DNA of 64,000 nt from Patellaria atrata CBS 101060. Taxonomy: Eukaryota. Positions within the stretch are counted from its first letter, which is position 1; every line of letters begins with the position of its first letter. Of the stretch, positions 1 to 45,465 are shown piece after piece. Both the position numbers and the translations under genes were made by a program. The DNA lies in assembly GCA_010093705.1 (NCBI GenBank), contig MU006089.1, forward strand, positions 2,839,561 to 2,903,560. The letters are read 5' to 3'. Under the pieces are notes generated by a model. The model had not been told where the DNA came from, did no database searches, and worked only from the letters and a program-made list of their open reading frames with translations.

Positions 1-1221
1 GATCCTGAAGGGGTTTACCCGTTAATCGGGCAATAAGCTCATTCGCAAAGCCCACACCTTGCGTTGGGCCGAGCGGGTTGCCGTGGCTGAAGCCATACCA
101 TTTACCAAGGGTTTGGTACCAGTCATAGATGCGCCATTCATCTTCATTGAAGAGGTCACAGAAAGGGGAGATCTCGCCGGTTGGGGAATGAACCGTCTCA
201 AAGGCGCAGAGATCCATGAGATAACTAGCTTCTTCCGAGGAAACCTTGAGGCCTGGGAGTTCCCGCTCGAGTCTCTCTTGAATTACAGGGAAAGCTTCTT
301 TGGCGTACTTGTCTTGGGCAATGGCTGCGAGGTGGCCATTATGACCAGTATCGCTTTCGAAATTCTTGCATAGGCCGTGATTCAACGTGTTATTAGATCC
401 AGGTGCTTCACTAATGACTACAAAATCATAGTGTCGACCATCTTTAATCGAGTCCTTATTCATAAGGTCGGACATCTTCGCTTGGTGGAAACCTTCAATC
501 CAGTATTGTGCGGACATGACTACCCTGTCCTGACCTGACGCTCTAACAAAAGGCATGTAATCCACGGCAAGATCTCTGTACCGTTCATAGTATTTGATTC
601 CGGAGTCATAAAGTTCTTGCTCCCCGAACTTGCTCAGTTGATCTTCCCCGAGAGTGTACTCATAGTCTTTCAAAAAAGCATATTTCCCATCAAACACTTC
701 CACATCCGACTTGATTTTCTTCACCAAGTTCCTATAGTAAATGGTCTTGTATGCCGTTGGGTCCCGAGCCCCGTGCCTGGACAAGATCTGTACGAAAGTG
801 ATCTTGCAGGTATCGGGTACCGTGTTATTGATCTCCGATGGGACACTAAAGTACGGAGAATATTGACCCCAGTAGTGGGATATTTCTGGCCTGCATTGGT
901 ATCCATGCTGACGTGTATCACACGGATTCCCAGGACGTTGGACCTGTGAAATATCGGTTCTGAGCCACGATCTAATGTGATCGCAAAGGATTAGTGCTAT
1001 AGTTTAGGAAGGGGTATGTGTTGGGAGTCGCACATTGGATGTCTTATGAAAAAGACGACAGCAGTAATGGTTGCAAGAGCGACCCATAATCTCCGTAGGG
1101 ACGAGTCCTCCTTTAAGAGCTTCCGGGACGGTGATCGCTCGAATCTGTGCACGGGTAATTCTGACTGGAATCGTCCGGCCTTGTGTGGGACGCGAATTCT
1201 GTTGAAGTTCTGTTTCTCCAT
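1..1221 (-). CDS. Histidine acid phosphatase / 3-phytase A-like (3' end runs off window start)
   Basis: Manual minus-strand translation gives CDTRQHGYQCRPEISHYWGQYSPYFSVPS...ILSRHGARDPT (RHGxRxP catalytic motif near 760-785) and SPFCDLFNEDEWRIYDWYQTLGKWYGFSHGNPLGPTQGVGFANELIARLT, typical of fungal PhyA. Intron 972-1033 (GTGCGA..CACTAAT..TAG) joins the 1221 ATG exon in frame. Confidence 0.92.
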
Positions 1222-34803: not shown

Positions 34804-35940
34804 ATGGATTCCTCTTCCTCCAATTCCGGGATATCGGATAAGGATCGGATCATCTGCGATGATACAGCTCGGAGACTCTATCCATCATATACTGTCACTC
34901 GCAGTCCTTTCCAAGGTGCTTGTAGCTATACACTATCATTGTCACCCAAGGATGACTATCATCACCCAGGGAAACATCAGAGCACTGGAATCCCCCTTAT
35001 TTTGCAATTTAGACCATCCTGTTACCCCCTTGACATGACAATAGCAGCATTGGCCAAAGCTACTTACGGATCATTCGCTCCTAGGACCGACGCAGTCGAT
35101 ACATTGGCAATATCTAAAGAGAAAGTTTTCTTGATGTACGAGATCGAGAGGCTAAACGGTGTACCATACAGCAGCTGCCAACCTCAAGTATACCATCTCG
35201 ACGAACATACATTCAAGAAGCAAGAACGCTTAGTCTCGGGGTTCGCAGATTTCCTATCCCGCGGCTGGGTTTCCACAGCAACTTCTCGAGGCCAAACAAC
35301 TTGTACCGGAAAAGTCGGCTCCCAACTCACCGCAAGACTACATCAACTAGCGCAAGAGCTACCTTCCCACGAGTTGCGAGCATATGCACAAAGGATATTC
35401 CAGGAGGTCCTGAGCGGGAAACTGGACATCCTCCCCCTCGTCCTCAATCACGGAGACGCGATACCGTCGAACCTCATGCTCGACCCGGACACTTTCCGCT
35501 TCGTCGGCATGGTCGACTGGGCTGAGTCCGAGATGCTGCCGTTCGGGACGTGCTTGTACGGGTTGGAGCTTCTGTTGGGATATATGACCACTGTCCCTTC
35601 GAACTCGTCTGTCTCGTGTTCCGTCCACGTGTTTCGGTATTACGAGCAGGCGGACAGTCTTCGGAGTGTGTTTTGGGAGCGGCTCGGATGTAGGACTCCG
35701 GGGTTGGCGGCGTCTGGGATTAGGGCTGCGGTGGAGCTGGCGAGAGATGTTGGTGTGCTTCTTTGGTATGGGTTCGCTTGGGATGGGGGGAAGATCGATC
35801 GTGTGGTCGATGGGGTGAGTGATGCTGTTGAGGTGAGGTATCTTGAAGCTTTTTTTTGGGATTTGGGCGAGGAAAGAGCGGGTCGAAGCTCTAGTGGAGG
35901 ATATACCGTAACTGGTTCCGCTGATGCAAAACTGGACTAA
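34804..35940 (+). CDS. Aminoglycoside phosphotransferase/choline-kinase-like protein
   Basis: 378-aa ORF with QGACSYT, ILQFR, Brenner-type motif LNHGDAIPSNLM, GMVDWAESEMLPFG. Confidence 0.85.
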   Translation: MDSSSSNSGISDKDRIICDDTARRLYPSYTVTRSPFQGACSYTLSLSPKDDYHHPGKHQSTGIPLILQFRPSCYPLDMTIAALAKATYGSFAPRTDAVDTLAISKEKVFLMYEIERLNGVPYSSCQPQVYHLDEHTFKKQERLVSGFADFLSRGWVSTATSRGQTTCTGKVGSQLTARLHQLAQELPSHELRAYAQRIFQEVLSGKLDILPLVLNHGDAIPSNLMLDPDTFRFVGMVDWAESEMLPFGTCLYGLELLLGYMTTVPSNSSVSCSVHVFRYYEQADSLRSVFWERLGCRTPGLAASGIRAAVELARDVGVLLWYGFAWDGGKIDRVVDGVSDAVEVRYLEAFFWDLGEERAGRSSSGGYTVTGSADAKLD

Positions 35941-36317: not shown

Positions 36318-37043
36318 CTACAATCCAATCCCCCTAACCGCCCACTCAACCTCCAACTCGGCCCTCAACCTCTCCAAAACAACCACGACACCATCGACCG
36401 CGGCCGCAAAATCATACCCGCGACACATCTCCGCGACAGCGCATCTGGGCCGCGTCACGCGCACCGCGAGGAGGTAGTCCGTCAGGGCGCGGCGGTAGGT
36501 GCGGACTTCTGGGGACACTACGGGTTGTTGGTTGTTTTGTGTCCCGGGTGGGTGGCGGGTTGAAGGAGGATGAGTTGAAGGAGGATGAGTTGAAGGAGGA
36601 TGAGTTGAAGGAGGATGGGTTGAGGGAGGATGGGTTAAGGGAGGATGGGTTGAGGGAGGATGGGTTGAAGGAGGATGGGTTGAGGGGCTACGAGGTGGAT
36701 CGTATAGGGGATAATGCGGGAGCGGAACCGACTCTGGTACCAGTGGTGGGTCCCGCGCTCGTCCTTGGCCTCGCAGGGTGGGGGATCCGTAGGGGGTGGA
36801 GAGGACGAGACGGACGGCGCGCTCTTCGCCTATGGCGCCGTAGGGGCAGGCTGGGGGACTCCGCGGGCGCTGGGGGAGGATCATTGTGGTAGGGACCATG
36901 GGGGGCGGGTTGGTGGAGGGTGGTGGTATGCTGGCTGGGTTTGAGGGAGGGGTGATGATGATAGCGGGGAGTATGGGGGGCTCGTCTTCTTCCTCTTGGT
37001 TTGGGGTTGGGAACTCTTGTAGTTTTTCTTGTGGGTTTGACAT
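36318..37043 (-). CDS. Proline-rich hypothetical protein with PPSTH tandem repeats
   Basis: Open frame from MSNPQEKLQ through ~8 PPSTH units to a helical-looking C-terminus (TYRRALTDYLL..LERLRAELE); TATA-like sequence upstream. Confidence 0.55.
   Translation of the reverse strand: MSNPQEKLQEFPTPNQEEEDEPPILPAIIITPPSNPASIPPPSTNPPPMVPTTMILPQRPRSPPACPYGAIGEERAVRLVLSTPYGSPTLRGQGRARDPPLVPESVPLPHYPLYDPPRSPSTHPPSTHPPSTHPPLTHPPSTHPPSTHPPSTHPPSTHPPSTRHPPGTQNNQQPVVSPEVRTYRRALTDYLLAVRVTRPRCAVAEMCRGYDFAAAVDGVVVVLERLRAELEVEWAVRGIGL
36559..36687. repeat. 15-bp minisatellite (gttgaRggaggatgR, ~8.5 copies)
   Basis: Tandem 15-mers read directly from the sequence. Confidence 0.9.
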
Positions 37044-37924
37044 TGTTGAGATTGTTGAGGTGAGGTGGTATAGAGCGGGTGGATATGAGGGACGAGGATT
37101 GATATAAAGGTTATAATGATGTAGAGCTTTTGAGTTCTGTGGGAAGAGGATCGATGTGAGGGATTCATGGTGTGAGGAGCTTCTGTTATATAGGATAGGT
37201 TGGATTTGGGTTTTAACTATTGCTCTGGTCAAAATGTCGATTATCTTAGAGTGGAGAATAGGGGTTTAGCTGGTTAAAATATCTATATGTTCTGATTGGA
37301 AATTTGACTGTGGCCATACTGTGGACAGCCTCACCAACTGTCACTTTTGTCATGGCTGAGGAAAAATCTAGTTCGTAGTAGATCAAGAAATGTCTTATCT
37401 GAATATTTGGTACACTTCCGCGAAGTCGAGAACCTGAAAGTGCAAGCTTCTAAGATAATCGAGCTTAGAAGCATACAAGGGAGTAAAGTTGTAATATATT
37501 ATTTGATATATTTAAATTTGACCAACATCTTATACTTACCTCAGTAACTGTAATGTTCTACTCAGTATCTCCATTCCAACGTCGTTAAGATGATGTGGAC
37601 TTACAGAAACATCATGGGAAACACAACAACAAAAATATTCGCATCTTCAACATACTTCTCAACACAAATTTAAAAGAATGTCCTGGTGATGTCTATTACA
37701 TAGATCAAGAAGTTCACAATACAATAACAGCATATTTTCCCTAACTCTCTAAAGATTAAAAAAGAAATTAAGGGAGGAGAAAAAAATGCAAAAGAAATTA
37801 CGAAGAATCCCAGAAACCGCAATTGCGAGTCAACGACTGTGTGATCCAGTCTTCTGTGGCGAATCAGTCCATAAGTGCGATGTTAAGCAGGCTTCTCTCA
37901 CTATTTTAAACGCGAATATTCTTA

Positions 37925-38005
37925 CGCAGCCGCCGGGAATTGAACCCGTAACGCAGGTTGTGTCGTTTAAAGCGGGATACTGGTGCACCACTAGGCCAAA
38001 GCTCC
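37925..38005 (-). pseudogene. Degenerate tRNA-like element (pseudo-tRNA or tRNA-derived repeat head)
   Basis: Minus strand has A-box TGGCCTAGTGG and B-box/T-arm CGGG-TTCAATT-CCCG at tRNA-like spacing. Acceptor stem only partly paired; D and anticodon stems broken. Confidence 0.45.
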
Positions 38006-38495
38006 ATGAGTTTCGGGAAGAACCGCGCAATTGGGGATATATAAGGTGCGAGGGAGGAATGCGGAGTGGGAATGTGCGGGAACAGTGTTTGGAAAGGATG
38101 GTGGGTGAGGGAAAGGAACGTGTAAATGAAAGTGTTACTTTGAGCGCGAACGAGCAAGTCTTGGTGTAGGAAAATGTGACTTCTTTAGAGATGGATGTTT
38201 TTGCACATGGGAATGAAGACGTTGACTCTCCCACAAAATTTCTCGAGCCTTATTTATTTGCACATAGCCCAGACTCCTTTCAAATTTCCAACTCTTCATA
38301 CTCTATCGCCGCTCTCTGGCGTCCCACATCCGCAACAGCAGATCTTATAATGATTCTACCTAGCATAAACAATGTCGGACAGCTTATCGGGATGGGTTCC
38401 CTTCCCGAAAGATGAAGGTTGATGCAGTATCGTTAGCTACCTTGGTCGTCGATGAGTAAACCTTCCAAGTACGCTCGTCCATTGGATCTCCAAAG

Positions 38496-39692
38496 ATAAG
38501 CAATCCGATCTGTCAGCATCCGAGGACTCGCTAAGATGAAGAAAGAAAGTGTATCGATATGATGCTCAGCTTTACGCTGACATTTATTGTTTGTGGAGAA
38601 CATTTCACCTTCAAGACGTTCCGACTTCATGGCCGCTCTGCCTACGATCATTGCTTTTGAAGAGGTACAACAAGAGATATCATGGATGAAAAAGATGAGA
38701 AATACCTACTGGACACTCCTGCGCACGCTGCACACTCTTAGCTATAGAGGCTAAGAAATACTCAGAGTCCTGGCCGTTATACAATTTTACCAGTACGGAA
38801 GACAAGTGATCCTAACCAAATGATTTGGTATCCTGAGCACTGGCTATGATGAAGAAACAATCACGACGGCGGCGTGATGCTCAGCTGTTTGCCGACACAA
38901 CTACTGGTTGTAGGTCTTTATTACCTTCGGTCGACTCTAACTTCACGGGCGATTTGGGGATTGTCGTTGTGTTCCAGCTGGATTGACCTGAAACTTTCGT
39001 AGTTGTAGATCAACAACCTCATTAGATACCTGCATGCTAGTACCCCTTTAGACGAAGGAATATGAGATCTTCGAAGCCATGACCGTTAGGTGTTTGAACG
39101 CAAATGATTCGAACCATCGAAACGAGGTTGCTATTTGTCTGGCAAAGTTGTCCAGAGGCAAGTGATCCTGATACCATTTTCGCTCTGAGTACTTGCTACG
39201 ATGAGGATACAATGATTGTTAAGTTGATGCTCAGCTTTGTGCTAACCATTCTGCTCTCTCTAGGAAGTATCAGACCCTTAGAAACGTCGGACTCAAATCA
39301 CAACCATGTCGACCCCTGTTTACTGCTTTAAGCTCTATAGGGAACTGTCTCCTGAGTGATATCAACCTTGATCGGGTTCTCCAAGGCAAGTGATCACCAT
39401 TCTTATGCATGTGAATACTAGTTACGATGACGACAAACCGCTTGTATTGCGATGCCCAGTTTTGCGCTAAATCTTCCTCTTTTCCTAGGAGTCGCTTATG
39501 CGTAAAATCGTCAAATTCACGTCGCAGCTAAATGTGACACTTTGGCAAAACCTCATCTGAACAGTCCACGGACCGTTCGATATTGATGGCTTTTTTTTAA
39601 GGCAAGTGATCATTTGTTGACTTTTTTCTGAGTCCTCGGTACTACAAAGAGAATCGGGGATATTGTGATTTTCAGCTCATGCTTTCATGTAG
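38496..39692 (+). repeat. Degenerate array of five related intron-shaped modules
   Basis: Units at 38496, 38802, 39158, 39386 and 39602 share RCAAGTGATC...CTGAG..CT..CTACGATGA...TGATGCTCAGC...GCTRAC...TAG to varying degrees. Confidence 0.75.
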
Positions 39693-40212
39693 GATATGCT
39701 GGAATGTGGTGTCTCGAAACCACTTGACTCCATCTCCAAGGGCGTTGGTTTGTCAGTTTCGGCTTCATCCACTGGTCGTCAGAAATGATGCTATACGGTA
39801 GCAGCTAGGGCCTATTTCTGGTGCACCAACCTCGAGGAATCGCTCGTAGCATTCCAAATGGAGGAACAGATGATGTTGGAGAGTACTTGATGGAAAGCGA
39901 GCTGAAACGTTTCTGAATCCACGGAGAGACATGATCATAGAGGCGGTGGTAAAAAGGAGTGATCAGCTTAGCTTAGCTCAAATATAAATCTTCATGTTTA
40001 TCACATTATATTTCATTTTCTACTTGAATACCCAGATTGTTCACCTTGATTGTGCAATTTGAAAATCATGGGGAGGAGTGGACGTCGAAACGGAAACGAA
40101 CCGTGCAACAAGAACACATCCCGACCCGGTCCACCCCGCTCCGCTCCACCTGTCAATATCATCCCAATCATCATCCCCAACCCCCCCACTTCCTACTCAG
40201 ACCTCCATAACC

Positions 40213-41348
40213 ATGAGCACCCCCAAAGCCGACGCAGAAGTGACGGTCCGACGAAACCCCCACCCCGACTTCCCGGCCGTCGAAGCCTCGCGGCCACTCT
40301 GGCACGAGCATCCCCTCACCTTCACGCAGCAGCAGAACCCGAGCTGGAAACTGGGAGACGGGGCCGACGACGGGGGAAAGAGCTTAAAACTCGCGGACAG
40401 CCCCGGGCACAGGGAGATTGACCCGTACGAGGAAGGACGGCCGGCGGTGTTTAACTACAAGTTGATGATCTCGGCGGTGGTGCCGAGGCCTATTGGTTGG
40501 GTTGGTACGAGGACGAAAGAGGGTATGTTGATGGGTCCTTTCGACACATTATAGGCAGATAGATATGGAGAGAGGGAGAGGGGAGCGTGTAATCGATGGA
40601 GGCAAAGGAGAACATAGCAAACTGTAACCATCTCACTGTACATAACCCGCGCTAGACTAATGCCCATCCCTCTTCACCTCAACAGGAACCACAAACCTCG
40701 CCCCCTTCTCCTACTTCAACATGATGAACCACGACCCGCCCATCTTTACGCTGGGCTTCTCAGGCGGCTTCGCCAGGCCCAAAGATACGCTGTCTATCCT
40801 TGTTGAGACAGGTGAATGTATTGTTTTGTCCCTTCCTTACCCCTATCCCCTATCCCCTATTCTTCCTTCTCATAAACCACCCACCAATCTAAACAGGTAC
40901 CATAAACATCATATCCGAGCCCCTCCTAGCAGCCGCAAACAGCACTTCCATCAACGCGCCCCTCGGGATCTCCGAGTTCGCACTCTCCGGTCTCCACGAA
41001 GCATCCTGCACCCTTGTCTCCGCGCCACGAATCAAAGAAGCCGTCTTCAGCGTCGAAGGTAAATTGCTGGAGACGAAAGAATATGAAAGCCGACACACCC
41101 CCGGGAAGAAAACTGGCGTTGTCGCGATCGTGGAGGGCCTGCGGTTCTGGGTAAGGAGGGACGCGGTGGATGAGGACGGGAAGCTTGTGAATCCGGGGGT
41201 GCTGAGGCCGATGGCGAGGATGGGCGGGATAAGTTATGGGAAGGTGACCGAGGTGGTAGAGATACCACGGCCGCAGTGGGAGGAGGTTGCGAGAGATAAG
41301 TCGGCGCGAGAGCTGGTGGGGTCGTTGACCGGGCAGCGGGGATTGTGA
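40213..41348 (+). CDS. Flavin reductase-like (FMN-binding split barrel) protein
   Basis: RNPHPDF..VEASRP, NYKLMISAVVPRPIGWV, NLAPFSYFNMMNHDPP, KDTLSILVETG, LRPMARMGGISYG; two introns. Confidence 0.9.
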
Positions 41349-41471
41349 AATGTTTGTATGTAGAAATGACTAATGGTGATAGATTTTATAGAAAGTGCAA
41401 CTCTGTATACGTGGTCTATAGAGTATCTTAATGGAGTTTTTCCATGGTTCTAGTCACGTGTAACAAAGCAC

Positions 41472-44400
41472 TTAAACATACCGCAACCGCTCCTCGGACC
41501 AAGCAGGCCTCAAGTACTCGCTATCAAACCTACTATTCCACCCACTGTTCAGAACATAGTCCGTCTTCCAGGTAATATCGACCTTTGCACCTTCGTCACT
41601 CTGCGCCCACACTGCAAGACCTATCGTGTTGTCACCAGCATAGTTCAGTATTCCTGGCGGGATCGGATATTCAATCTGATGCCCAATATAAGGATTGAAC
41701 TTTCCATACTGATATCCATTGACGAAAAGCTGTGCTCTAAGTTTATTCGTTCCCGGCGCGTTGAGTGTGAAAGAGATCGATACATCCTTGCCTACGGGAA
41801 TATCTAATGGGACAACGGTGCGGTAGAACCGCACGCCAGCTCCTTCGAATCCGGTAGACGGATCACCCGCTTCGAAGTTCGAGTCATCGAATCCGGGAAG
41901 ATGCCAACCGAGACGTTCTGCAGTCAGCCCTCCTTCGTTGAGTGGGGCACGAACAGGATCCAGGACAACACCATCATTACCACCTGCTTCACCTGCAATT
42001 TTCCAACAAGTGAAGGTTGCATTAGATGAGCCGAGTAGAGTTGCGTTGAGGATACCCCGCGGATATAGGGAGAGTGAACGTAGGTCATGACCAGTGTTGT
42101 CCTGGACCATGAGAAGAACGTTGGGCGCGGTAGAGTTGTTCAGGGTTACATTACCGAAGGAAATCGTCATATTTCCGTAACCCAACGACCCGGTGGATGA
42201 GTTTCCAAAGTATGAGCCTATGAACTTGCCGTTAAGGAAAGCAGACCAACCAAATGCATTTCCCCCTTGGACTGCTAGGTAAACGCCTGTTGCTGGACCC
42301 TTAAAGTAGCCACGGAAGAGATGGAGACTATTATGAAACCCGTAGTCATCTACATAGAGGACAGGAAGAGTGTCAGGTTTGAAAATATTAGGTGTCTCGG
42401 TATGATTCGCATCAGCCCATGCAATACCGCTATCATTGTAACTTGGGAGACGCTCTGGGAGACTATCCTTCGCCTTCCAGTTGTTGAGCGGTGGAAGCTG
42501 AACCATGCCAGAATCAACTGCAGGAATCTTCGCGGTTAAACTACCATAGCCGGTCCTCATTGTTCTCAAGGCTTTACCATTCCAGGTAATATTCTTTGCA
42601 ACATGGGGTGCGAAGACCTCAATTGAAGTAGCGTTATCAGAATCACCAGTCAACGAAATAGTTTTCTTGTTCCCCGTGAGTTCGGCGCTACGGACAAGAT
42701 ATGGTCCTTGCACAAGGACTATGGAAGTTAGAAAGGAAATCATATGCAAGGTACAAGTCACAGGTAGTCTTACCTGACTGATCTACTGGAGCAAAAGGAT
42801 CAATGGATAAGTTCGGCGCCCAGAATCTGTAAGCATACGATCTATCCACAACAATGACTTTCACATCATTGTCAAACTCTATTACCGTCATTCCAGTTGA
42901 CTGAGTAAGCCCAACAATAAGGCCCTCCCGTCTGCGATGGAACTTCACACTGGTAGTCCTTTGATCTTTCTCAACAGATCCCTTTCTTGCTCCCTTAAGG
43001 AAGAACTCGGCAAGTTCTCCTGTCGGGACCCAGAGGACAAGTACGGGACATTTGTCCAATACTGCATATGTAAGGACCTCCGCAGTGGAGTAGATCAAAG
43101 TCGCAGTCCCAAACCTAAAGTCGGTGACAAGGATCTTTGACTGATGGCCATTGAGAATGACAGATCCGCCATATTGAGGAATAGTAAGTGCACCAACGGA
43201 GGTATTAACACGCAGTTGAAATGACTCCCTAGTGCCGGATGATGACTGACTGTGAATTGTCACGTAGAATCCGGCTCCCGTTTCAGGATTTCGTAGCTCA
43301 CTTGCCTTGACCGCCGGATTCGTAGAATAGCTAGTGCTATTTCCGATTCTGTTCGTCACAGTCAAGTCCTCCGCGGCTCGTGTGAACATCGCGAGATTCT
43401 TTGTTTCGTAGTATTTAGCTCCAATGGTGCGGTTTTCACTGATTGGGGAAGAATAGTCATAACTGGTAGCAGTGACTGGGCAAGCAAATGCACCCCAGTT
43501 GGTCCCCCCGTACATCATGTACAGACTGATAGCAGTCACCCTTTGAGCTATGAGATCTCGGTAAAATAGGTTTGCGAAATCAGGTCCTATGTCATTCGGA
43601 CAACCACCTTGAGGACCTCCCCACGGATTATAAGAACCACCCTGGAATTCAGGGAAAAACCTGGGCTGTGTGTTGGAATTCTCGACGAAATGATCATAGT
43701 AATTAATTGTCTGATAGGCAACATATTCACCATTTGTGCCAGTACACTCCTCAAGATTACAGCTCCAGCACTAGGACCCATTAGTTTCTGGTACCTAACT
43801 TGACTTGATTAACTTACCGAGGGATAACTATCTAAACCAGCAACATCGACATTTCCTGTAGCGTTAGAAAAGTCTTTCGACCATGAAAACGATCGCATAT
43901 TCGGATCATTGTGAATTACAGGAACTGTAATGCCATTCTTCCTGGAAGAGTCTTGAAGTAATCTCATATATTCTCCGGCGGGTTGGTTTGGTACTCTACT
44001 CAGAGGGTTTCCTATCCATTGCTCGCCATATTCGTTTTCCATCTGGTAAACCAGCATATTCCCATCATTTGTAACCTGGTGTTGACTTGCGATTTGAGAA
44101 AAATTGCCCCAATACGGTTTCCAGGCATTAGTATACCTTGGATCGTTATCTCTTAGCTCCCCATATGCACCTGTTGTCAACCATAGGGGAAACCCCCCTG
44201 CATTTGTTTCTGCATTGACGTAAGGTCCTGGTCTAACGATGATGTATAGTCCGACTTTCTTAGCAATCTCGAACAGAGGCGTAATATCATGTGCGCCAGT
44301 AGTAAAGTCCAATGTTGACGGGGAAGAGCTATGATAGCCCCAGTGGCCGTAGAAAGCATACGCTGTGAACCCTGCTGCTTTGATCTTCTGTAAAAGGTCT

Positions 44401-44630
44401 TCCCAGACCTCTGGTACGGGTATTCGCCAATAGTGAAGCTCTCCGGAGAAGACAAACAGTCTTTTACCATTTATCTGGAAGCTGAAATGATCCCATTCGA
44501 CTACCTCGTTTAAGCCATTGTCATGCAATGGCCATTGCTCGGGAGTCGTTACCTGACTACAAGTACTCGGTATATAGGCTAACAAGAAAATGAGAGATAA
44601 ACAATTTCCCAAGCTCTTTAAGAGTTTCAT
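41472..44630 (-). CDS. Secreted beta-galactosidase, glycoside hydrolase family 35 (LacB-like)
   Basis: Signal peptide, [25 protein letters not shown] (acid/base Glu), PEFQGG (nucleophile Glu), [32 protein letters not shown]; two introns. Confidence 0.96.
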
Positions 44631-45465
44631 ACTGTATAACAAGCTCTAGAAAGCATAGCCCGCGATAGAAGATGTAAGAAGTCATCATGGGGAAGAAGAT
44701 GATGATAAGACGGGTGGGGTTGAGCTATTGTCTGGCATGACGAGATGCTCAATTTGCAAGTTCCACAATTAGGCGATTAATGAAAATGTTAGCGATTGGG
44801 TAATTATGCTTTGAACAGTATCAGCGATGCATCCTCAAGGATCTCACTGAGAGCAAAGCAGGTTAGATGTCAATGATCAGGGGATATTGCGGGGAACACG
44901 GAGGCGGACGGACTCCATTGTAATATGAGTCCCAGTAACGTTTGGCTTGGAAGTTTGAGATGATCTCCTATCCTAGAGATGATTAACCGAATGCCTGGTT
45001 ACTCGATTGCTCACTCAGAAGAAACTCGGATGAGAAGTGGAAAATTTCTTTGGGGGAGACACAACGTATTAACCAAATTTGGAACCCCGGATTAAAGTGA
45101 CCCGAAGCGGAGAACGAACTTCGACCTCCAGGTACTGTAAGATCCTCAACCTCTGGACATGTTGAGATCAGTATAAACTCACTCACAATATCCTCGAATT
45201 CGCAATTGAAGTTGCAAGCATCTTTGAGAGGTTTTACAAGCGGAGATATCGTGAGTCTTATATGACACCCTTGACGGTATGACTTCTGGAGCTTTCTTTA
45301 GGGTTGACCACCAAAGGTATGACCTTAGGTGAAATTCATGGGTGAGAGATGGATGGTTATTCTATGTCCTCGAACAGTATGAATGGAGTGAAAAGAGTGT
45401 GGTCTCTCAGTTTCTCATACCTCTCTAAGAGTCAAATGAAGATGGCTCCTATCCAGTATAAAGAT

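Follow-up and report, generated by a model that had tools for sequence, protein, structure and literature searches.

This work concerns a tandem array of five homologous intron-like modules in contig MU006089.1 of Patellaria atrata CBS 101060, located on the plus strand at positions 38496-39692 of the window (the whole 64-kb stretch of DNA that was analysed). The array sits in an intergenic gap of about 2.9 kb. The modules have the form of introns with GC donors and AG acceptors (GC-AG introns) and were first pointed out in an initial annotation of the same letters, in which every coordinate and motif was found to be correct. All five units are preceded by AG. Units 3, 4 and 5 start with GCAAGT (at 39158, 39386 and 39602, respectively), and the G at position +1 is changed to A in unit 1 (ATAAGC, 38496) and unit 2 (ACAAGT, 38802). 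A branch-like motif of the CTRAC or CTHAH type is present in each unit: GCTGAC at 38576-38581, GCCGAC at 38891-38896, GCTAAC at 39241-39246, GCTAAA at 39466-39471 and CTCAT at 39676-39680. Units 2-5 end in TAG at 38913, 39263, 39488 and 39692, and the end of unit 1 is degenerate, GAG at 38598.

Organization of the array

Unit 1 (38496-38598, donor ATAAGC, acceptor GAG) is 103 nucleotides (nt) long and is followed by an exon-like spacer of 203 nt (38599-38801), which resembles the other spacers in its first ~45 nt only. Unit 2 (38802-38913, donor ACAAGT, acceptor TAG) covers 112 nt, and the spacer behind it is the longest one, 244 nt (38914-39157). Unit 3 (39158-39263, 106 nt), with the AG|GCAAGT donor, a pyrimidine tract and TAG, is the best-kept copy. 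The third spacer (39264-39385, 122 nt) is open in a single frame which closes in the next segment. Unit 4 (39386-39488, 103 nt) combines AG|GCAAGT with GCTAAA and TAG, and is separated by a spacer of 113 nt (39489-39601) from unit 5 (39602-39692, 91 nt), in which AG|GCAAGT is combined with CTCAT and TAG. The start of the segment after unit 5 (39693-39760) is weakly similar to the starts of the other spacers.

Splice signals of the modules

For 2022 Fusarium introns, the donor is reported as AAG|GTAAGT with C at position +2 in 1%, the branch site as CTRAY in 91% with CTHAH, including CTAAA and CTCAT, being rarer, and the acceptor as YAG, the median intron length being 57 nt (PMC5677156). Units 3-5 matched the fungal consensus everywhere but at position +2, and their branch motifs are located 10-22 nt 5' of the TAG. 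The full set of U2-type GC-AG signals, AG|GCAAGU with CTRAY or CTHAH 10-25 nt before YAG, was found in units 3-5 and in three units of a related array, L004, which is described below. Units 1 and 2 deviate from it at +1, and unit 1 at the acceptor too. Owing to the A at +1, and to the GAG end in unit 1, these two units look dead as introns, and unit 1 is probably not spliceable.

The likeness to U2-type GC-AG introns extends to the AG|GCAAGU donor with all other positions at consensus, the CTRAC branch site and the YAG acceptor. Such introns usually occur singly in coding genes, and in the Fusarium survey they make up ~1% of the introns (PMC5677156). In contrast, six intact copies were found here in two organisms, all with GC and with a conserved interior. 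Two GT-AG introns of the nearby beta-galactosidase gene (GTAAGT...ACTAAT...TAG and GTAAGA...CTAAC...TAG), the branch sites and acceptors of which are of the same types, are ~47 and ~57 nt long, so the modules (91-112 nt) have about twice the length of these two local introns.

Specificity of the repeat and a related array

A repeat search resulted in the four-copy families D1, D2 and D4, which cover the two main blocks and the donor block of the modules. The covariance model proposed in the initial annotation was built, and together with nhmmer profiles it recovered precisely the five units from the 64-kb window, with no further match below E=1; models built from the units match their own training rows by construction. 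Unit 3 was the top match of every model. An independent check was carried out with a profile made from the three L004 units only, the top window matches of which were unit 3 (E=3.5e-4), unit 2 (0.021) and unit 4 (0.023), L004 itself having been located with a 21-base pattern derived from the window. Extra decayed units near 38154, 39741 and 39880, proposed by eye and hinted at by the repeat families D6, D7, D10 and D11, were rejected, as no match was obtained by nhmmer at E up to 100 or by the covariance model.

L004 was detected by scanning metagenome contigs with the pattern GCAAGTGATC, a gap of 45-75 and GATGCTCAGCT, which returned four loci. It comprises three near-identical tandem units with a 157-nt period, each consisting of a 102-nt module and a 55-nt spacer, and its module reads AG|GCAAGTGATCC, GGCTGAC, a pyrimidine tract and CAG. 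With a window-only profile the score of L004 was 22-27 bits; the other three loci, L001-L003, were chance single matches of 4.8 bits or less. Copies a and b of L004 differ at 3 positions in the 102-nt module and at 6 in the 55-nt spacer, and the amplification appears recent because the copies are near-identical. In both arrays, conservation is higher in the module than in the spacer. The 55-nt exons of L004 meet a stop in the third frame. In the BLAST comparison of L004 with the window nothing common was found beyond identical blocks of 12-14 nt. Synteny was rejected, and no window gene corresponds to the partial gene that adjoins the L004 array. The acceptor is TAG in the window versus CAG in L004, and no alignment between the arrays is possible for the stretch that links branch site and acceptor; an acceptor function kept amid changed sequence is what selection for splicing would leave.

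A scan of bacterial and archaeal genomes with a 22-base three-block pattern yielded 29 single matches, with ~33 expected by chance according to our own estimate. None of these was tandem, and all had 17 bits or less compared to 83-85 for L004; they serve as the null.

On the strand opposite to the L004 array, a scanner for box C/D small nucleolar RNAs (snoRNAs) picked a canonical candidate at positions 455-520 (plus strand of L004), with AUGAUGA, a 55-nt interior, CUGA and a 5-bp terminal stem. The candidate is weakly similar to the archaeal sR1 and sR11 models in Rfam (E 0.35-1.6) and lies antisense, inside the exon-like segment just 5' of the first L004 unit. By eye, the 55-nt unit spacers of L004 resemble internally deleted antisense copies of it.

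A box C/D-like core

The core of the module is arranged in the order GCAA, GUGAUCC, a variable linker of 14-20 nt, CUGA, a hairpin of 29-37 nt with a GAAGAAA-type loop, (R)UGAUGC, UCAGCUNNNG (10-11 nt), and CUGA, CCGA or CUAA then C, with the pyrimidine tract and YAG behind. The conserved blocks are arranged like the boxes of a box C/D snoRNA (C, D', C', D) and have guide-sized spacings: the segments before the D-type boxes are 14-20 and 10-11 nt long, where at least 10-12 nt are expected. A strict regular expression for the four-box layout matched the three L004 units only, and a relaxed one also matched units 2 and 3. Neither expression had any further match in the window, nor any in 182 kb from other loci, and in 50 shuffled windows the strict expression gave 0 and the relaxed one 3 matches. 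As the expression was written after seeing the units, the result describes rarity and is not an a-priori test.

In unit 3, GTGATCC is located at 39162-39168, the linker at 39169-39184, CTGA at 39185-39188 at the start of the hairpin (39185-39234), TTGATGC at 39224-39230 and the 3' strand of P1 at 39235-39239. The boxes of unit 2 are GUGAUCC, CUGA, GUGAUGC and CCGA. Unit 1 retains AUGAUGC, GCUCAG and GCUGAC, with GCAAUCC as its first and CCGA as its second box. The inner boxes of unit 4 are decayed (GTGA, CGATGCC). In unit 5 the third box is decayed (GTGATTT), the block 5' of the branch site is deleted, and the unit has a 9-bp inner hairpin of its own.

Unit 2 alone carries a perfect AUGAUGA within a hairpin (38847-38897, plus strand), followed by GUGAUGC and CCGA. 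GAUGA variants occupy this place in the other units and GUGAAGA in L004. The region gave a chance-level match to the archaeal C/D model sR18 (E = 6.9). Known ribozymes, the hammerhead and the k-turn geometry were considered for the modules and rejected, with no match in Rfam and no fit by eye.

The inner UGAUGC box is one base off the consensus, and the better-kept boxes of the modules are the inner pair, from which two further readings of the same blocks arise. According to the first one, the register is shifted and the locus is an unspliced polycistronic box C/D array, each snoRNA beginning at the UGAUGC of a unit and ending at the CUGA of the following one, with GUGAUCC and CURA as degenerate inner C' and D' boxes and the module interiors as spacers between snoRNAs. 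The terminal boxes then become the well-kept ones (A/G/UUGAUGC and CUGA), as is usual; AUGAUGC serves as C box in Neurospora crassa CD47 and CD51 (PMC2780460), and a simple C/D scanner delivered a candidate of 128 nt with a 4-bp stem in L004. However, the three euascomycete clusters studied in one survey are all intronic (PMC3596301), and the candidates in the window would be ~180-315 nt long. None was found by the scanner at 37300-40300 on either strand, where its box-to-box limit of ~140 nt excludes such lengths. Flank pairing with the next unit was no better than within the same unit, and the conserved AG|GCAAGT, the spacing from branch site to YAG and the TAG or CAG acceptor amid diverged sequence are left unexplained. 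We consider the shifted register quite improbable.

In the second reading, the modules would be circularly permuted box C/D RNAs closed by the spliceosome, with C (UGAUGC) and D (CUGA) in the centre, joined by the hairpin. By analogy with the circular C/D RNAs of archaea, the 2'-5' bond of the lariat would join D' to C' via a 4-nt loop and so recreate the closed topology of a two-guide C/D ribonucleoprotein (RNP). In a milder form, the core proteins of small nucleolar RNPs (snoRNPs) on the boxes would compete with U1 and branch-site factors, and the array would sense or buffer free snoRNP proteins. The chance of this reading, the milder form included, is slim.

Conservation and coding capacity

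The view of the initial annotation that the interiors are more alike than the flanks was borne out, since the pairwise identity of the modules was 49-68% compared with 19-51% for the spacers (first 45-48 aligned columns) and 20-55% for the 20 bases upstream. A continuous open reading frame (ORF) was not found, again as annotated: no frame is open through the array, spliced or unspliced, and the longest spliced open stretch has 81 codons. Protein coding was rejected, as every frame of either strand contains stops, both with and without splicing. AGGCAAGT occurs four times in the window, three times of these within the array, and the three array copies are descendants of one ancestor and not independent events.

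The window units are mutually as distant as from L004 (56-61%), which suggests that the blocks were held while the rest drifted to saturation. An effect of repeat-induced point mutation was rejected, as there is no excess of transitions (186 transitions, 237 transversions). The linker after GUGAUC is unalignable between the units, yet GCAAGTGATC, CTGAG, GATGCTCAGCT and GCTRAC persist. Such sparing of blocks would not be expected of neutral decay; the constraint is to be read with the caveats that L004 was ascertained via two of the blocks and that every window copy has lost something. Unit 3 alone is nearly complete among the window units. The copies in the window are old and diverged, not near-identical.

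The introner-like elements of fungi are related, multiplied introns which are longer than ordinary ones (PMC3609843). As described there, their donors are canonical, the near-identical copies number up to hundreds and are spread over unrelated protein-coding genes, and the predicted folds are unusually stable (PMC3609843). In contrast, the array has GC donors, is tandem in non-coding DNA, gave folding z-scores near 0 and has no other copy in 64 kb, so that neither canonical donors with many genic copies nor a stabler fold was found within the window. The introner-like element put forward in the initial annotation is not supported in that form, given the GC donors, the folds resembling those of shuffles, the absence of copies from the window genes and the age and divergence of the copies. 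The local tandem amplification which it implied is real, and in L004 it is recent.

The wider explanation is a selfish or neutral repeat, i.e. a locally amplified intron-bearing segment, introner-like or spread by unequal crossing-over, which is functionless, decays in the window and was recently expanded in L004. It would account for the losses in all window copies (G at +1 in units 1-2, the inner boxes in units 4-5, the D-type box in units 2-5), and the near-identical L004 copies point to recent amplification. The modules are also about twice as long as local introns, as reported for introner-like elements (PMC3609843). However, two organisms with unalignable flanks share identical blocks of 12-14 nt, which is partly ascertainment as 21 bases were used to find L004, and the window blocks stand out from saturated surroundings. 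GC donors, a fold that is not unusually stable and the lack of copies in window genes also argue against it, and the metagenome scan gave one true locus besides three chance loci. A functionless repeat is rather unlikely in our estimate.

Predicted RNA structure

The same consensus structure was obtained with RNAalifold on two alignments. In its long-range helix, the five bases at the 3' end of the exon pair with CUNNG immediately 5' of the branch site, and intron positions +4 to +10 (AGU-G-AUC) pair with GAUGCU. The determined proportion of paired cells was 92%, compared to 30-52% with the partner slid. Three pairs are changed on both sides, and the covariation score, which rests on six independent sequences, was 0.266 versus 0.160 in shuffles (reached by 3 of 500). 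With a single L004 row, 25 of the 30 exon-end/partner pairs were formed compared with a mean of 22, a value reached by 14 of 720 permutations and by 0 of 265 derangements. The long-range helix covaries weakly. Taken alone it has -5.8 to +6.9 kcal/mol, and the most stable fold with this helix lies 5-14 kcal/mol higher than the minimum-free-energy fold.

Another helix, H1, is formed by CUGAGYA with UGCUCAG, and 87.5% of its cells were paired compared to 20-45% when slid. No compensatory change was found in H1 in the alignment of the units and L004. H1 closes a hairpin of -10 to -13 kcal/mol in units 2, 3 and 5 and in L004. All 7 H1 pairs are formed in units 2 and 3 and 4 of 7 in unit 4; unit 3 also forms 11 of 11 long-range pairs. 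The two helices are partly exclusive because both use GCU of block C: the exon-end helix can stack on the H1 hairpin, and the hairpin and the inner part of the long-range helix are in competition. Both helices are plausible as models, unproven as they are.

With such a pair of folds, the modules could also be structured regulatory introns without a snoRNP product, in which alternative helices control the accessibility of the weak GC 5' splice site, one fold being the long-range helix over the splice site and the other H1, which frees it. In this case, the locus would encode a long non-coding RNA, the function of which would lie in regulated or slow splicing or in the binding of splicing or k-turn proteins. 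The snoRNA-like sensor in the human NOP56 pre-mRNA offers an analogy. The selection of the long-range helix by RNAalifold on both alignments, its pairing and covariation above the controls, the pairing of H1 above the slid controls and the partial exclusion of the helices are in agreement with a switch. However, the long-range helix is energetically poor, H1 shows no compensatory change, the sequences amount to six independent ones and 25 pairs are little more than the mean of 22. In addition, a switch leaves the many kept copies and the hypervariable linker unexplained. Regulatory introns are considered unlikely.

Complementarity to rRNA and likeness to N. crassa snoRNAs

The linker of L004 contains a perfect 10-nt complement of Escherichia coli 23S ribosomal RNA (rRNA) 2580-2589, which ends 1 base before CUGA, and the fifth base upstream of the box is opposite E. 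coli G2583. According to the complement of the N. crassa CD31 guide (PMC2780460), the L004 duplex would be lengthened to 11 by the next base in fungi. The rRNA comparison was made with the E. coli operon, and the result for the L004 linker is near the chance level. It represents weak evidence, because other 9-mers and many G-U runs were given by the same script. At the second guide place, a 9-bp match with 2 G-U pairs to 23S 2576-2584, with the snR71-type target opposite position 5 in L004, was rejected, as 9-bp G-U runs occurred by the dozen.

N. crassa CD27 is an intronic RNA of 85 nt and of the snR71/snR69 type (human U29), which guides 26S Am2904 and Cm2906 (PMC2780460). By eye, its published sequence consists of UGAUGAG, a guide with UAAACCCA, UCAGAG, a loop, GAUGCUGAG and CUGACA (PMC2780460), and L004 of GUGAUCC, UCUAAACCCA, UCUGAG, a loop, GAUGCUCAG and CUGACU. 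The order of the elements is the same, and L004 has UAAACCCA in the guide place. Both have the centre UC(A/U)GAG ... GAUGCU(G/C)AG, in which the same 5-bp helix is possible, and both end in CUGAC. The L004 linker pairs with a segment of the large subunit rRNA that starts 3 nt after the CD27 target. CD27 differs from it by the canonical UGAUGA C box and the 15-bp guide. L004 is 6 nt short beside the box, so the base opposite the fifth position would be the equivalent of E. coli G2583 and not one of the CD27 targets, and the window linkers show no such likeness. The resemblance to CD27 is a lead and does not mean membership. Likenesses of the unit 3 linker to CD47 and of the unit 4 linker to CD7 were seen by eye and rejected, as they need indels and are near chance, the CD7 segment not being its functional guide.

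Genomic setting

The DNA is of the filamentous ascomycete type, with long exon-like ORFs split by short GT-AG introns. This pattern is also seen in the beta-galactosidase gene mentioned above (41472-44645, minus strand), and the nearest Atlas clusters of the kinase-like protein at 34804-35937 are from Ascomycota. The gap that contains the array is bounded near 37265 by an ORF on the minus strand (36318-37265) and on the other side by a gene on the plus strand (40213-41350), the start of which, near 40213, is 520 nt 3' of the array end. The latter is presumably a flavin-reductase or FMN-binding split-barrel protein. The minus-strand ORF encodes a proline-rich protein adjoining the array with a run of repeated PPSTH units (PPSTHPPSTHPP...), and its opposite frame reads KEDEL/REDGL repeats.

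The intergenic position of the array, with its end 520 nt upstream of a plus-strand gene, and the short, perfectly kept blocks in a variable background would also fit a DNA-level element, i.e. tandem protein-binding sites regulating a neighbour such as the flavin-reductase-like gene near 40213. However, all the copies have one strict orientation and carry splice-type signals at proper distances, the helix covaries, and L004 shares no flank or neighbouring gene with the window. Such an element is the least probable of the explanations considered, and we regard it as remote.

A TATA-box-like site, TATATAAG, is located on the plus strand at 38038-38045, 458 nt 5' of unit 1, and is one of the 11 TATAWAWR matches in the window when both strands were scanned. 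It is a possible RNA polymerase II promoter of an array transcript, which its position and strand would fit. No tRNA gene was found in the window by a tRNA scan or by ARAGORN with or without introns allowed. A tRNA-like fragment with the T-arm GGGTTCAATTCCCG is present at 37912-38005 on the minus strand. A second copy of its 46-nt piece at 37912-37957, with 3 changes, lies on a different contig of these DNA data, which suggests that the fragment is a dispersed tRNA-derived one.

Discussion

Of the explanations proposed in the initial annotation, the spliced non-coding host transcript is the one that agrees with the absence of coding, the conservation of modules above spacers, the consensus splice signals and the C/D-like layout, and the part concerning small RNAs is weakened by the non-canonical boxes. 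Our tentative preference, at somewhat less than even probability, is a non-coding host locus with several introns and of the UHG/GAS5 type, in which tandemly duplicated GC-AG introns would release C/D-like RNAs and most copies in the window are partly decayed. The snoRNA clusters of euascomycetes are intronic, with one snoRNA per intron in host transcripts without a long ORF (PMC3596301; PMC2780460). Among the fungal host genes of this kind (UHG/GAS5-like; N. crassa clusters I-V; snR72-78, snR57-55-61, snR41-70-51), several short introns and no long ORF are described (PMC3596301, PMC2780460). The array shares with them the several introns, the lack of a long ORF, introns conserved above the exons, one small-RNA-like core per intron and canonical branch and acceptor sites. 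The known clusters, as described in these sources, contain snoRNAs of distinct families per cluster, which have canonical C/D boxes and are located ~40-60 nt from the splice sites (PMC3596301, PMC2780460). In contrast, the introns of the array are mutually paralogous, and every donor is GC. Their first box follows the 5' splice site after 4 nt, and their last box coincides with the branch site; the outer boxes depart from the canonical form, and the array matches no family in Rfam. In the literature, nothing was found on such fungal arrays, either for GC-AG introns with introner-like elements or for GC-AG introns with snoRNA host genes.

Several results weigh against a snoRNA host locus. The first box is never RUGAUGA, being GUGAUCC in units 2 and 3 and in L004, GUGAUCA in units 4 and 5 and GCAAUCC in unit 1. 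The last box, which overlaps the branch site, is CUGA only in unit 1 and L004, CCGA in unit 2 and CUAA in units 3-4, and is lost in unit 5, so the copies that look spliceable have the poorest D-type box. With the D box as branch site, snoRNP assembly would be set against branch-site recognition. A terminal stem is not possible, as 4 nt (GCAA) precede the first box and no complement follows the last one. The complementarity of the flanks of the inner boxes is weak and does not discriminate between the readings. In Rfam, no family reached the gathering score in the window, and no relevant one was found at E up to 10 in 36500-41500 or L004, where chance-level archaeal sR models were the sole matches. 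The modules fold no better than dinucleotide shuffles (z from -0.65 to +0.54), and one relative was found.

The guide-like segments add further points of this kind. Perfect 9-mers to E. coli rRNA were obtained for three other segments together with dozens of G-U runs of 9-11 bp, and by our own estimate a 10-mer is expected about once among the ~12 distinct segments tested. The register of the second guide place is off by one in the window units, and its 9-bp match is one of dozens. The comparison with CD27 was made by eye, and the shared 8-mer and 9-mer (one mismatch) are near chance over 55 snoRNAs.

For the preferred host locus, the following mechanism is proposed. The array may have grown via tandem duplication of one short exon and one GC-AG intron. 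RNA polymerase II would initiate downstream of the TATA-like site at 38038, and the U2-type spliceosome would excise the modules with intact signals (units 3-5), with units 1-2, lacking G at +1, staying in the transcript. The product would be the excised intron and not the spliced exons. In the intron core, a C-type UGAUC 4 nt after the 5' splice site would be followed by the hypervariable linker of 14-20 nt in the guide place, then by the D-type CUGA, the hairpin with a purine-rich loop, the C-type UGAUGC and 10-11 nt, with a D-type CUGA, CCGA or CUAA at the end doubling as branch site. The likely product would be a C/D-like RNA of 80-90 nt; alternatively, a stable intronic RNA could form an RNP with the same proteins. 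Unit 3 is the only one in the window to keep nearly all the elements, and the other units appear to be decaying paralogues.

If the array is instead a decaying repeat, it is of little importance. If the proposed reading is true, it would be a locus of the snoRNA-host type, missed altogether by gene callers and Rfam, with three features that were not found described for fungal clusters in the literature consulted: all the introns would be paralogues produced via local tandem duplication, the rare GC donor would be kept by all of them across two organisms, and the boxes of the small RNA would overlap the splice signals. Such a locus would offer a natural test of the competition between snoRNP assembly and splicing on a minimal intron, and snoRNA-like genes would be seen being born, amplified and decaying in place.

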